Source: a virus
Lineage: Duplodnaviria > Heunggongvirae > Uroviricota > Caudoviricetes
IMG/VR virus record: IMGVR_UViG_2531839622_000025
Strand: one strand, 5' to 3'
DNA: 4,099 bases
Positions 44 through 3,850 of this stretch are shown here, piece after piece; the stretch's first letter is position 1, and every line of letters begins with the position of its first letter. The notes below the pieces were generated by a model that searched no databases, was not told the origin of the DNA, and saw only the letters and a list, made by a program, of their open reading frames with translations. The position numbers and the translations under genes were made by a program.

Positions 44-88
44 CCCCCTCCGCACGCACATGCGACCATGCCGCACAGGGAGGGAAAG

Positions 89-1198
89 ATGACCGACACC
101 ACCATGCAATTGCTCAGTCAGAGCACAGACCCCGTGAAAATGCCGGATTTTGATATTCTCGCGGAGGGTAAAACGCTGTCAGGCGTGGCAGAGCGCCTGA
201 TGAGCCTGTCACTGACCGACAACCGGGGATTTGAAGCAGACCAGCTCACCATCACGCTGGATGATGCGGATGGTCAGTTGCAGCTACCGCCACGGGGTGC
301 GCGCCTGACGGTTCTCATTGGCTGGAAAGGAGAACCGCTGACAGAAAAAGGCACTTACATTGTTGATGAAATCGCACACGAAGGACCGCCGGACAGGCTG
401 ACGGTTTCAGCCAGAAGCGCAGATTTTCGGGATGAATTTAACGTTAAACGAGAGGTGTCCTGGCATGATGTGACCGTTGAGCGTGTGGTATCCGCCATCG
501 CTCATCGGTACGGTCTGAAACCGCAAATCAGCGAAATGCTGATGGATATCGAAATCGACCACGCCGACCAGACCGAAGAAAGCGACATGTCCTTCCTTAC
601 GCGCATGGCGGAAATGCTGGGCGCAATCACCACGGTAAAAAGCGGTAATCTGTTATTCATCATGCCAGGCGGTGGCGTGAACGCACAGGGCCAGCCGTTG
701 CCCTCGTTCGCCATCACGCGCAGCAGTGGCGATCGCCATCAGTTCCGCATTGCTGACCGCGAAGCGTATACGGGGGTACGCGCTTACTGGCTTGATCTTA
801 ATTACGGGAAAAAGAAAAAAGTCAGCGTGAAACGCCGCAAACCGCCAAAACCCAAAAAGGAGAAAAGCAGCAGCCGTGAAGGTGATTATATGGAAGGCGC
901 AGAAGGCAATGTGTTTGTGTTACGCAAGACTTATCAGAACGAGCAGGCAGCAAGACGCGCAGCGGCGGCAAAGTGGCAGCAGCTACAACGCGGAGCCGCA
1001 GCGTTCTCCATCACACTGGCACGTGGACGCGCAGAACTCTACCCCGAAATGCATGGCACGGTAACAGGATTTAAAAGCGAAATTGATAATCAGGACTGGA
1101 TTATTGCAAAAGCCGAGCACACCATTGATAACAGTGGCTTTACCACGCAGCTTGAGCTTGAAGCCAAAATCCCGGAATGGATAGCAGAAACAGAGTGA
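89..1198 (+). CDS. D: Phage tail protein D / late control gene D protein (Phage_GPD family; baseplate hub, related to the VgrG N-terminal region)
   Basis: ORF 68..1198; translation contains the block SLSLTDNRGFEADQLTITLDDADGQLQLPPRGARL that I recognise from P2 gpD-family proteins. Start placed at ATG 89 because of the SD-like agggaggg at 77-84; ATG 68 has no SD. Stop TGA 1196-1198. Confidence 0.88.
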   Translation: MTDTTMQLLSQSTDPVKMPDFDILAEGKTLSGVAERLMSLSLTDNRGFEADQLTITLDDADGQLQLPPRGARLTVLIGWKGEPLTEKGTYIVDEIAHEGPPDRLTVSARSADFRDEFNVKREVSWHDVTVERVVSAIAHRYGLKPQISEMLMDIEIDHADQTEESDMSFLTRMAEMLGAITTVKSGNLLFIMPGGGVNAQGQPLPSFAITRSSGDRHQFRIADREAYTGVRAYWLDLNYGKKKKVSVKRRKPPKPKKEKSSSREGDYMEGAEGNVFVLRKTYQNEQAARRAAAAKWQQLQRGAAAFSITLARGRAELYPEMHGTVTGFKSEIDNQDWIIAKAEHTIDNSGFTTQLELEAKIPEWIAETE

Positions 1199-1360
1199 GC
1201 AACTTAAATGTATTAACTCAGAACGGATCAACACACTCACAACATAGAGTCAATATAGCTGCTCGCTTTGTTCCAGCAAGGATGCCTATTTCTAAGGAAA
1301 AACAGAGCAGAAACATATGGTGTTTTCCTACCTGACATCAGGGGTGGTAAGAATCATGCT

Positions 1361-1388
1361 TTGATAACCAATTGATAACTATTATTAT
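1361..1388 (+). promoter_or_regulatory. Putative sigma70 promoter of the cargo gene (-35 TTGATA 1361-1366, 16-bp spacer, -10 TATTAT 1383-1388)
   Basis: Hexamers read directly from the sequence in an AT-rich 225-bp intergenic region; RBS GAGG at 1414-1417 precedes ATG 1424. Contains a TTGATAAC direct repeat (1361-1368, 1372-1379). Confidence 0.35.
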
Positions 1389-1423
1389 ATTAATCTAACA
1401 CCATTGACATAGTTGAGGTTTGA

Positions 1424-2926
1424 ATGAACAAAAAGCTGTATTTATTCCCAGACTCAAACATTTTTCTACAATGCAAGGACTTGACGCAGGTAAATTTTTC
1501 CGAGATTACTGCTTGTGATGAAGTATGTATCATTATTACAAGGCCCATTCAGCAAGAGATTGACCGCCAGAAAGGGCAAGGTAATTCCCGCCTATCCAAA
1601 AAAGCAAGGAAGGCTGCTAGCCTATTTAATCAAGTAGTTGATTCAACTGACATGACTCTTGTTATTCGTGAACGCTCGCCGCGAGTTTTTCTTACCATGG
1701 ATCTAAGCCTGAAACCATGTGAACAGTTATCTGAACAATTGGATTATCAGGAGGCCGACGATCGTTTTGTTGGTATTGCGGCAGGGTATTGCGCTGACGA
1801 TCCAGATTCGGAGGTGGCAATCATTACCAATGATAGCGGTCCACGTTTTTCAGCAATAAAACATAATATAATCTGCTATAAAGTGCCTTCTTCATGGTTG
1901 CTTCCTGCTGAGCCAGATGAAAAGGATAAACAAATTAAATTGCTGGAAGCTAAGCTGAAGCAATTCACTCAGTCTATGCCCGATTTCAGCATTAAAGTAG
2001 CCGATGACGAGCAATTAAATATTGTACTTCCTTATTATACAGCTTTATCTGAATATGAAGTTGATAATTTGCTTTGTCAACTAACGGATGCATTCCCATT
2101 GGTTACAAACTTTGACAATGAACAAACTACCCCACAATCACTAGAAAAAATCATCAAGTCATTTAGTCAACAGGAGTATTTCCCTGTATCAGCAGATGAT
2201 ATTTCTCTTTATAAAGAAAAACATTATCCACTTTGGAAAAAGCAGTGTGAAGAAATACTGAAAAACTGTCATACTCATATTAATCCGAAGGCAATAAAAT
2301 ACCCGCTGTCGTTTTTATTACAAAACACAGGTTATACTATCGCTGAACGTGCTGTGGTAACATTTACAGCAAAAGGAGATTTTCGTCTGTGTGGATTTAA
2401 TTGGGAGATAATGGAAGAGCTGACTGAAAGCAAAAGGATTGACCTACCTTCAGCCCCTACCGCCCCCAAAGGAAAATGGCGTAGTGTATGTGGCGTAACA
2501 GAAAGAATGCCTTACGCTTGGGGAGCTTTGGAAACACCGCTATCCAGTATAATTTCAAAAGAAATTGGTCCTTTGTTATCTCTTACTCCAACAGAAAGGG
2601 ATAAAAACGATTTTTATTATAAAGAAAAGAGAAATGAGCCAGTTCAAGTTGTATCGCTGGAATGCGAAGAGTGGCGTCATCAAGTCAAAGAAGAAATATT
2701 CCCGTTGTTCGTATATACAGCCAACAAACCAAAGAAAGTGAATGGTGCAATTGAGGTGAGAGTTGATGCAAATAACCTTACCAATCCGGTCATTAAAACA
2801 TTTAAATTAAAAATAACTATAGAAGAACATAGTGCATTTTCAACCATAACAGAAATGGTGCAGACATACATTCAAGAGCAGAAGAAAAGACAGAAAAGTT
2901 CTATTAGCGCACAAATCAAAACATGA
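1424..2926 (+). CDS. PIN-like nuclease domain fusion protein (N-terminal PIN fold, ~350-aa C-terminal domain of unknown function); candidate anti-phage / abortive-infection cargo gene
   Basis: 500-codon ORF with good RBS. N-terminus LYLFPDSNIF (D10), QQEIDRQ (E45), EADDRFVGIA (D112/D113) and AIITNDSG (D137) fit the four-acidic-residue PIN signature including the C-terminal T-x-D motif. Visibly AT-rich compared with flanking D and ogr. Lies between D and ogr, which are adjacent in P2 as I recall it. Confidence 0.8.
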   Translation: MNKKLYLFPDSNIFLQCKDLTQVNFSEITACDEVCIIITRPIQQEIDRQKGQGNSRLSKKARKAASLFNQVVDSTDMTLVIRERSPRVFLTMDLSLKPCEQLSEQLDYQEADDRFVGIAAGYCADDPDSEVAIITNDSGPRFSAIKHNIICYKVPSSWLLPAEPDEKDKQIKLLEAKLKQFTQSMPDFSIKVADDEQLNIVLPYYTALSEYEVDNLLCQLTDAFPLVTNFDNEQTTPQSLEKIIKSFSQQEYFPVSADDISLYKEKHYPLWKKQCEEILKNCHTHINPKAIKYPLSFLLQNTGYTIAERAVVTFTAKGDFRLCGFNWEIMEELTESKRIDLPSAPTAPKGKWRSVCGVTERMPYAWGALETPLSSIISKEIGPLLSLTPTERDKNDFYYKEKRNEPVQVVSLECEEWRHQVKEEIFPLFVYTANKPKKVNGAIEVRVDANNLTNPVIKTFKLKITIEEHSAFSTITEMVQTYIQEQKKRQKSSISAQIKT

Positions 2927-3034
2927 GGGTGTACTCAAATAATACAATGCTATAGTAAATCTATAAGTGCATAACTATTTCCTGATCTTTTCCCAAAATA
3001 GATGACAGGATAAAAAACATTCCAATCTTTTACA

Positions 3035-3069
3035 GGCTTTGGATAAATCGTATCAAAGCCTATTTCTTC
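3035..3069 (+). terminator. Weak terminator-like hairpin downstream of the cargo gene
   Basis: ggctttg (3035-3041) / caaagcc (3054-3060), 7-bp stem with a 12-nt loop, followed by tatttcttc. The T-tract is imperfect and the stem is short. Confidence 0.2.
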
Positions 3070-3110
3070 AAGAGTTAAATCACCGCTTTTCGCTCGAAAC
3101 GGACTGGCTG

Positions 3111-3139
3111 TTGGAGTATGAGCCAGAACAACTTAGAAT
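3111..3139 (+). promoter_or_regulatory. Putative ogr promoter (-35 TTGGAG 3111-3116, 17-bp spacer, -10 TAGAAT 3134-3139)
   Basis: Hexamers read from sequence; RBS aagggagg at 3157-3164 precedes ATG 3170. P2 ogr is known to have its own promoter. Confidence 0.25.
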
Positions 3140-3169
3140 AGCCCCTGCACTACGTTAAGGGAGGTCGCT

Positions 3170-3430
3170 ATGTTCCGTTGTCCGCTTTGTGGCGCATCAG
3201 CCCGCATCCGTACCAGTCGTCCGGAAAATGATTCAAACACCGTGCGGCAAAAGTATTACCAGTGTAACAATCTAGAATGCGGCGTATGCTTCTCAACACT
3301 GGAAGCTTTTCATAAATTCACATCGAAACACGCCTCCGGCGTTCACTCTTCAGAAGGTATCCCGTGGCATGAGCTGCCAGCTTCACACAGGGGAAACAAT
3401 CAGATGAGTTTGCCTTTGCCTCAAAATTAA
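3170..3430 (+). CDS. ogr: Ogr/Delta-family zinc-finger late transcription activator
   Basis: 86-aa ORF starting MFRCPLCGASARIRTSR...YYQCNNLECG; Cys-X2-Cys...Cys-X4-Cys arrangement and N-terminal MF.CPLC...ARTSR match P2 Ogr / E. coli OgrK as I recall them. Strong RBS. Located downstream of D as in P2. Confidence 0.88.
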   Translation: MFRCPLCGASARIRTSRPENDSNTVRQKYYQCNNLECGVCFSTLEAFHKFTSKHASGVHSSEGIPWHELPASHRGNNQMSLPLPQN

Positions 3431-3439
3431 CAGGCAGAA

Positions 3440-3468
3440 TTGCCGGAGTAACAAAAAAGCGATAGATT
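3440..3468 (+). promoter_or_regulatory. Putative promoter of the hok-like transcript (-35 TTGCCG 3440-3445, 17-bp spacer, -10 TAGATT 3463-3468)
   Basis: Hexamers read from sequence; predicted start near 3475 coincides with the 5' element (3475-3483) that is complementary to 3819-3827. Confidence 0.25.
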
Positions 3469-3490
3469 ACGCGCGGGTGCCTTTCGGCTG

Positions 3491-3703
3491 ATGGTCGGAG
3501 GGAATACCCGAAGGCCAGATGTGGAAAGGCCCCGGAAAACATCTCTGTTTAACCGAGGCCCTAACCGCATTACCTTGACAAGTGAAAGGTTAGCGCCTCT
3601 CCGGAAAAGGAGCAAGTGCTATGTCGCAAAAATCGCTTACGGCCATCACGTTCTGTGTGACGGCAATCCTCATCATCTGGATGTTGCACGGTTCGCTGTG
3701 TGA
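3491..3703 (+). CDS. mok: mok-like overlapping reading frame (translational coupling partner of hok)
   Basis: 70-codon ORF in a different frame that begins upstream of and overlaps most of the hok-like ORF, as in plasmid R1 hok/mok/sok. An alternative GTG start at 3521 is preceded by AAGG. The product is probably not functional as a protein. Confidence 0.35.
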   Translation: MVGGNTRRPDVERPRKTSLFNRGPNRITLTSERLAPLRKRSKCYVAKIAYGHHVLCDGNPHHLDVARFAV

Positions 3704-3761
3704 AATACGGATGAGCTTCTGGGGAGCGGAGTTTGCGGCGTTCTTACAGTGTAAGCAGTAA
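3621..3761 (+). CDS. hok: Hok/Gef-family type I toxin (small membrane peptide)
   Basis: 46-aa ORF MSQKSLTAITFCVTAILIIWMLHGSLCEIRMSFWGAEFAAFLQCKQ: N-terminal hydrophobic helix, SLCEIR and EFAAFLQCK blocks resembling the Hok family (closest in my memory to HokA, ..SLCELHIKQESYELAAFLACK..). RBS aaggag at 3607-3612. Below the length cutoff of the supplied ORF track. Confidence 0.72.
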   Translation: MSQKSLTAITFCVTAILIIWMLHGSLCEIRMSFWGAEFAAFLQCKQ

Positions 3762-3850
3762 GGAAACCGCGACGGGGGAGCTATCCCCCGTCAATCGGTT
3801 GCCAGGGTAAGGCCGGATAAGGCACCCTATCTCACAGATATGAACAACAA

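Follow-up and report, generated by a model that had tools for sequence, protein, structure and literature searches.

The VapC toxins, PIN-fold nucleases with a conserved acidic site, are single-domain proteins of about 130-150 amino acids (aa), and an antitoxin gene lies upstream of theirs. In EcoprrI, a restriction-modification (R-M) locus of type I, prrC sits between the hsdS- and hsdR-type genes. In Escherichia coli, the PIN protein DS-3 is a validated single-protein defence that lacks a cognate antitoxin and for which auto-inhibition has been proposed, and the PIN catalytic residues are required for defence by both DS-3 and DS-5 (DefensePredictor, PMC13092281). A coupling of type I R-M subunits to PIN nucleases, left unspecified and lacking antitoxins, has also been noted (Matelska et al., PMC5499597), and the Q-A locus of P2 was shown to harbour a store of anti-phage systems (Rousset et al. 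2022, PMC9122126). Here we compare with these systems a PIN-domain gene found in 4,099 nucleotides (nt) of viral DNA (Caudoviricetes; IMG/VR record IMGVR_UViG_2531839622_000025), a stretch that is called the window at its full length. The window is the right end of an E. coli P2-family prophage (Peduoviridae; P88/Xuanwuvirus-like), and the gene is an open reading frame (ORF) of 500 aa whose product is WP_001035742.1 in RefSeq.

We favour the reading that this ORF encodes a self-contained, single-chain immunity protein carried as prophage cargo, a latent RNase of the abortive-infection type, and we put the probability of this at roughly 55%. The N-terminal PIN_4 domain, of the SMG6/Dis3 type, would be the effector, a metal-dependent endonuclease and most likely an RNase. 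The C-terminal part of about 320 residues would be a control or targeting module that either keeps the PIN domain latent or directs it to its substrate. Infection by another phage would serve as the trigger, and cleavage of host RNA, phage RNA or both would halt translation, so that the infection is aborted, to the benefit of the lysogen population and the resident prophage. The features that speak for this are an intact PIN domain, a fixed architecture, the lack of a partner gene, the behaviour of the gene as cargo, the defence contexts of its homologues and the precedent of DS-3. From them we infer nuclease activity, latency with activation, and an anti-phage phenotype; RNA is the probable substrate by analogy with SMG6, Dis3 and VapC.

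Within the limits of sequence analysis and structure prediction, the identification of the PIN domain is solid. Pfam PIN_4 (PF13638) matches aa 10-151 with an E value of 4.5e-8 and 33.9 bits against a curated gathering cut-off of 21.9, a match beyond chance. The full-length AlphaFold2 (AF2) model was built from an alignment of 43 homologues and has a mean predicted local distance difference test score (pLDDT) of 85.5. Its residues 1-160 score 88-95 and are predicted to take up the PIN-type alpha/beta/alpha fold with a parallel five-stranded sheet, the strands lying at 4-9, 33-38, 87-92, 130-135 and 150-153 with helices between them (pLDDT about 90). Foldseek against the PDB gave probability 1.0 to the PIN domains of SMG6 (2hww), Nmd4 (8rdd) and AF0591 (1o4w), with template modelling (TM) scores of 0.62, 0.63 and 0.64, respectively, taken on the target in single-domain entries; the PIN domain of Dis3 (Rrp44) was also matched. 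Among the viral structures in BFVD, the only matches were a PIN protein from a giant virus and folds of a generic kind. The initial annotation, made from the sequence alone, had read nt 1424-1888 as an intact PIN domain, and this interval is exactly aa 1-155 of the translation of 1424-2926. An N-terminus without the fold, which it had named as an outcome that would speak against it, is not what AF2 and Foldseek (SMG6, Nmd4, Dis3, AF0591) returned.

The four-residue acidic active site of the PIN superfamily (D, E, D, D) is present as D10, E45, D112 and D137. In the model, D10 is placed after strand beta1, E45 in helix 40-50 after beta2, D112 at the start of helix 111-125 and D137 just past beta4. 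Conservation was read from 166 full-length relatives with a median identity of 30%. D10 is an aspartate in all 158 relatives that are ungapped there, E45 is kept in 163 of the 166, D112 in every one, D113 in 146 and D137 in 165, and D47, K50 and R56 are nearly as constant as the catalytic residues. The positions first given for D10 (FPDSN, aa 8-12), E45 (QQEID, 43-47), D112/D113 (EADDRF, 110-115) and D137 (ITNDSG, 134-139) were exact. The view that the nuclease is probably active agrees with the Pfam model, the predicted fold and the near-invariance of the catalytic residues, all of them computational.

In SMG6, the active site consists of D1251, E1282, D1353 and D1392 (Matelska et al., PMC5499597). 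A full-length profile alignment, which is weak (E about 0.8) and was used for alignment only, places D10, D112 and D137 on D1251, D1353 and D1392. The E45 region is displaced by five residues in the HMMER alignment; E45 probably corresponds to E1282, because the E-I-D after strand 2 matches the E-L-D of SMG6. The PIN domains of SMG6, Dis3 and Nmd4 thus have Pfam PIN_4, the predicted fold and an equivalent acidic site in common with the window protein. These three belong to RNA-decay factors of eukaryotes, in which unrelated domains partner them, whereas the window protein belongs to a bacterial mobile element and has a C-terminal module of its own, and its sequence similarity to solved structures is marginal.

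The remaining two-thirds of the protein had been called uncharacterised, and with regard to database matches this stands. For aa 160-500 there was no match in Pfam, NCBIfam, PADLOC or PDB-sequence searches, and a Pfam scan of the C-terminal regions of 23 relatives gave nothing consistent. In PHROGs, nothing was matched except, marginally (E 0.0027) and over aa 442-488, one phrog that has no annotation, and the full-length profile found only a chance-level match, BBA03 (E 0.055), among PDB sequences. Nevertheless, the region is confidently folded in prediction and has several invariant residues. Two independent AF2 runs, one of the full-length protein and one of the C-terminal region alone, gave the same layout: a linker helix, then an alpha/beta lobe, then an Ig-like beta-sandwich broken by a loop of low confidence (about 357-388), and last a long terminal helix (Table 1). 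Residues ~165-180 had been taken for a short coiled coil or a linker. The sequence DEKDKQIKLLEAKLKQF occupies aa 165-181, and the prediction of a single helix at 166-183 agrees with a linker; a coiled coil was not demonstrated.

The C-terminal cysteines, histidines and tryptophans had been described as scattered and without a recognisable motif, a description that calls for refinement. An LECEQWRH motif contains C414, R418 and H419, and these are invariant in 166 of 166 relatives, as are Y263, N301, G303, P345, P348 and N451; W271 is kept in 165, C275 in 159 and H283 in 154. In these alignments, such residues of the module are as well conserved as the PIN active site. It is a speculation that C275, H283, C414 and H419 could form a metal site. 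The residues are invariant, and therefore a conserved ligand, substrate or partner would fit better than a fast-evolving sensor of one phage protein.

The family is large. A word-indexed search returned 51 full-length homologue clusters, all of 470-520 aa, and an exhaustive hidden Markov model (HMM) search with the C-terminal profile returned 1,716 clusters at 50% identity, of which 772 had E<1e-30. It has members in Proteobacteria, in Chloroflexota (Dehalococcoidia and others), and in Planctomycetota, Acidobacteriota, Gemmatimonadota and Latescibacterota, among further groups. The best 150 of the 1,716 matches are nearly all about 490-510 aa long with the module starting near aa 160, and an N-terminal PIN_4 domain was found in nine of ten distant relatives checked. 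Because nearly all listed matches share the architecture and nine of the ten carry PIN_4, the PIN domain and the module are a fixed pair as far as these sequences tell. Sharing of the module with other effectors was not found among the best 150 of the 1,716 matches, P0064 aside. In P0064, a metagenomic protein of 745 aa, the module from the linker helix onward is joined to a multi-pass membrane-like N-terminus (weak Wzy_C) with no PIN domain; it may be a rare domain swap, or a chimera of assembly or gene calling. In databases the family is annotated only generically, and neither the family nor WP_001035742.1 was found named in the searched literature.

The gene behaves as cargo between two conserved phage genes, gpD and ogr. 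As far as nt 1206-1220, window gene D is 96-97% identical in nt to its counterparts in the phages P88, Chuche and 500465-2, and the insert has a G+C content of 38% vs 54% in gpD. The empty site of P88 has gpD and ogr nearly abutting, with a single CAACTTA. The whole window contains two copies of this heptamer, one at each junction, a pattern suggestive of target duplication or of insertion mediated by microhomology; besides this pair, a repeat scan of the cargo found only short, chance-like repeats. A P2-like prophage of Rahnella carries the cassette at 78% nt identity at another position, between gpS and gpV. The cassette common to Rahnella and the window has this gene as its sole gene, and the candidate promoter lies inside the conserved part. 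Beside the PIN gene there is no conserved ORF in 1199-1423 or 2927-3169, and a 52-aa ORF (1177-1335) that spans the insertion junction has no Pfam match. A classical VapBC toxin-antitoxin was considered and rejected, there being no antitoxin ORF in 1199-1423 or 2927-3169. The window protein is like VapC in its PIN fold and conserved acidic site, and unlike it in being a 500-aa protein of PIN_4 type.

A 1.97-kb stretch around the ORF is present at an identity of at least 99% in 59 of 5,426 complete E. coli genomes, and each copy is chromosomal. For this gpD type, the 3' end is found in 1,137 genomes, and therefore only about 1 in 20 (~5%) of such prophages have the PIN gene. The gpD-ogr site is a variable locus, being empty in P88, Chuche and others and filled with alternative cargo in 500465-2. 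As in the P2 hotspot (old/tin locus), the cargo is small, variable, low in G+C and placed between conserved phage genes. Unlike that cargo, the window copy is at gpD-ogr, a site outside the survey of Rousset et al. (PMC9122126).

The slot of phage 500465-2 (NC_049343.1; 2819-3841 of the extracted locus, minus strand) is occupied by a different gene of 340 aa on the opposite strand. Its product has a sub-threshold match to HEPN_RiboL-PSP (E 1.2e-4) and the R-x4-H motif 'RHGIVHH', and no PADLOC match. It is a candidate for another RNase-type defence gene.

An anti-phage role is probable because defence hotspots of phages and operons of type I restriction systems are where relatives of the gene are found. 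In an Enterobacter asburiae P2-like prophage, the homologue is in the canonical Q-A hotspot of P2. Of the others, one follows the integrase gene in a prophage like 186, one is part of the cargo of a Pectobacterium integrative and conjugative element (ICE), one abuts phage genes in Raoultella, and one, on a chromosome, is near a PIN toxin-antitoxin-like pair. The neighbour in the E. asburiae prophage (5822-7351, minus strand) is an ABC ATPase-Toprim gene that matches PADLOC HEC-04 (E 4e-44) and also the OLD, AbiL and PARIS AriA models. This Q-A hotspot therefore holds two adjacent candidate defences, the PIN homologue and the HEC-04/OLD-like ATPase.

We surveyed 60 loci from species-representative genomes, detecting type I R-M genes by profile HMMs built from the neighbours. 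Type I R-M genes were detected at 20 of the 60. At 19 of these, hsdM and hsdS precede the PIN gene in that order and on its strand; hsdR was detected at 14 loci and lies downstream in all of them, and the hsdS stop and PIN start usually overlap or are at most ~30 nt apart. Pfam and PADLOC searches of two ORFs per side at 33 loci, with neighbours called by a simple ORF caller, identified 10 HsdS, 4 HsdM and 5-6 HsdR among 132 ORFs; other neighbours were AbiEi/AbiEii-WYL, Abi_C, Fic, a ThsB-like TIR protein and transposases. That defence genes are embedded in the hsdS-hsdR slot is documented, by DarTG2 (PMC12255303), TgvAB (PMC11411939) and the 'guilt-by-embedding' approach (10.1101/2024.01.29.577857). 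An effector-plus-sensor arrangement, as the initial annotation proposed, fits both the hotspot and the R-M contexts.

Two further observations were made in these neighbourhoods. In two unrelated genomes (L024 7723-9976 and L029 6648-8907), the PIN-family gene directly follows AbiEi-like and AbiEii-WYL genes on the same strand, so that type I R-M is not the only neighbourhood that recurs. In six of ten PIN-carrying type I R-M operons, the upstream hsdS ORF has an N-terminal Pol-beta/MNT-type nucleotidyltransferase domain before Methylase_S (Table 1); the domain is absent from the four other hsdS ORFs, and in L011 the HsdS part was found by PADLOC and the custom HMM and not by Pfam. The limits of this fusion rest on the simple ORF caller, and the fusion is provisional. 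MNT domains are antitoxin partners of HEPN RNases, and by analogy a regulatory link between MNT-HsdS and the PIN protein is conceivable.

DS-3 is a validated precedent, and the window protein is neither DS-3 nor DS-5; an identity with either was rejected, as these are different proteins. DS-3 has 340 aa (WP_022645725.1) with its PIN domain split between the N- and C-termini, and the PIN protein of DS-5 has 376 aa (WP_021513009.1) and needs a second protein. WP_001035742.1 was not found in the searched supplements of PMC13092281. With PrrC, the resemblance lies in the hsdS-hsdR slot occupied by relatives on the same strand and in a putative latent RNase without an antitoxin gene; unlike prrC, the window copy adjoins gpD and ogr. 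A Pfam scan of the window protein detected no PrrC-type ABC NTPase or anticodon-nuclease domain, only PIN_4, and its C-terminus is predicted to be an Ig-like sandwich.

This resemblance allows another explanation, in which the protein is a guard of the PrrC kind: the C-terminal module would bind the Hsd complex or be silenced by it, and a suicide RNase would be freed when a phage anti-restriction protein disables the R-M system. The 19 loci with the PIN gene between hsdS and hsdR on the same strand, usually directly after hsdS, speak for such a guard. The slot is that of prrC in EcoprrI, and a conserved partner would go well with the invariance of the C-terminal residues. The antitoxin-less PIN nucleases coupled to type I R-M reported by Matelska et al. 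(PMC5499597) also agree with it. On this view, the copy in the prophage would act together with the type I system of its host. However, there are no adjacent hsd genes in the window or in five other enterobacterial or chromosomal contexts examined, about two-thirds of the 60 sampled loci have no type I genes detected within 10 kb, and the PrrC-like ABC ATPase and anticodon-nuclease domain are missing from the protein. Embedding does not prove dependence on R-M, because the same slot also hosts the autonomous DarTG2 in enteropathogenic E. coli (PMC12255303) and TgvAB in Vibrio cholerae (PMC11411939). We regard a guard of this kind as unlikely. A broader proposal takes the C-terminal module as a new regulatory domain that couples the PIN RNase to the state of the type I restriction enzyme or to a conserved infection signal, in a widespread 'second line' family analogous to PrrC that today's defence catalogues have missed and that P2-like prophages have captured solo. 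The invariant C414, R418 and H419, the near-invariant C275 and H283 and the possible metal or ligand site are the features cited for it, and we offer it tentatively, as a possibility on the unlikely side.

The protein could also be a selfish addiction module, toxin and antitoxin in one chain, with the PIN toxin neutralised by the C-terminal module, which retains prophages, ICEs and R-M operons with no direct anti-phage role. PIN domains are classic VapC toxins (PMC5499597), the gene rides many mobile elements, and a hok/gef addiction toxin lies ~700 nt away in this prophage. Yet a single stable polypeptide offers no obvious route to post-segregational killing, a 500-aa protein of PIN_4/SMG6 type with no upstream antitoxin is not VapC-like in size or family, and the neighbours are mostly dedicated defence genes, not generic genes for mobile-element maintenance; we find an addiction role improbable. 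The position between late-function genes, on the same strand as both gpD and ogr, would suit a nuclease that serves the prophage's own lytic growth by shutting off host RNA, by processing late transcripts or in counter-defence, and some phages do encode PIN/PhoH2-type proteins (PMC5499597). Such a service is very improbable for a gene carried by so few prophages with this gpD type and lacking from P88-type phages, with no homologue in 50,697 deposited phage genomes, present at unrelated sites and in R-M operons of non-phage genomes, and provided with its own candidate promoter-like region.

Several points weigh against a latent anti-phage RNase, the reading that we prefer. DNA, too, can be cleaved by PIN-like domains, so that RNA is suggested by the PIN_4 relatives. 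What the contexts offer is guilt by association, drawn from 60 loci without a matched background control. PADLOC-DB v2.0.0 and NCBIfam gave 0 families at E<=1 and PHROGs no annotated match, and tblastn found no homologue in the deposited phage genomes. The invariant C-terminal residues resemble a catalytic, ligand-binding or structural site more than a variable phage sensor. The relative placement of the domains in the AF2 model is uncertain (predicted TM score 0.55), and hence autoinhibition cannot be read from it. Both regulatory calls around the gene are weak, since promoter and terminator scans of the region gave site counts at shuffle expectation.

The remainder of the window belongs to the prophage and its end. 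In E. coli O111:H- 11128, the prophage carrying the PIN ORF ends beside ihfA. RefSeq gives gene D of this strain (NC_013364.1; 19146-19999 of the extracted locus) as an 801-nt coding sequence plus a small pseudogene fragment, unlike the window, where gpD is an uninterrupted ORF of 1,131 nt; either the start was called differently, or the gene is damaged in that strain. The Hok/Gef-family toxin ORF lies just inside the prophage end, and window 3454-3827 has ~82% identical DNA in many Shiga toxin-converting phages. An Rfam scan of the window found no family at gathering score, hok/sok RNA included.

Table 1. Features of the window (upper rows) and hsdS ORFs of other loci (last row); positions in nt.
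Feature	Position	Strand	Basis
gpD-type tail/baseplate hub gene, left conserved flank	68-1198	+	Pfam Phage_GPD, E 3.5e-17
Left CAACTTA copy at cargo junction	1200-1206	+	Sequence comparison with P88
Cargo insertion, ~1.92 kb, absent from P88-type phages	1207-3129	+	P88 homology stops at 1206, resumes at 3130
Mobile cassette: gene with ~140 nt 5' and ~180 nt 3' flanks	1281-3105	+	blastn of 1151-3200 against the Rahnella prophage
Candidate promoter-like TTGATA-16-TATTAT (10/12), 36 nt upstream of ATG	1361-1388	+	Promoter scan
Shine-Dalgarno-like GAGG, 5 nt before ATG	1415-1418	+	Sequence read
500-aa ORF, 'PIN domain-containing protein' WP_001035742.1	1424-2926	+	Translation; RefSeq
PIN_4 nuclease domain (predicted), aa 1-155; catalytic D10, E45, D112, D137; also conserved D47, K50, R56, D113	1424-1888	+	Pfam, AF2, Foldseek, conservation
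Linker helix (predicted), aa 166-183	1919-1972	+	AF2 secondary structure, both models; pLDDT ~72-85
Alpha/beta lobe (predicted), aa 188-286, long helix 257-280; conserved Y263, Y268, W271, C275, H283	1985-2281	+	AF2, conservation
Ig-like beta-sandwich (predicted), aa 290-470; invariant N301, G303, P345, P348, C414, R418, H419, N451	2291-2833	+	AF2, conservation
C-terminal long helix (predicted), aa 472-499	2837-2920	+	AF2
Weak terminator-like hairpin, then UAUUUCUUC	3034-3061	+	RNA fold -10.7 kcal/mol, z -1.9; inside conserved cassette
Right CAACTTA copy at cargo junction	3129-3135	+	Sequence comparison with P88
ogr late-gene activator, right conserved flank	3170-3430	+	Pfam Ogr_Delta, E 5e-14; RefSeq annotation
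Hok/Gef-family toxin ORF	3621-3761	+	Pfam, E 4e-7
hsdS ORFs with MNT-type domain	L010 8428-9999; L011 8350-10002; L016 8329-9972; L017 7056-8687; L023 8225-9973; L048 8443-9978		

A nuclease effector joined to a regulatory module and moved as single-gene cargo is a familiar logic. What lifts this case above routine is a very large family that spans phyla, a C-terminal module that is strictly conserved and unassigned, and the recurrent embedding between hsdS and hsdR. If the latent anti-phage RNase reading is true, a broadly distributed single-gene immunity family of 1,716 clusters, none recognised by PADLOC or NCBIfam, would be added to the defence catalogues. It would also be a second RNase in the hsdS-hsdR slot, structurally unrelated to PrrC, with which the PrrC idea of guarding the restriction enzyme could be tested anew. 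Likewise, gpD-ogr would be documented as a site where P88-like prophages of pathogenic E. coli (O111, O157) carry working cargo. For learning how a PIN nuclease stays latent without an antitoxin, the C-terminal module offers a clean target.

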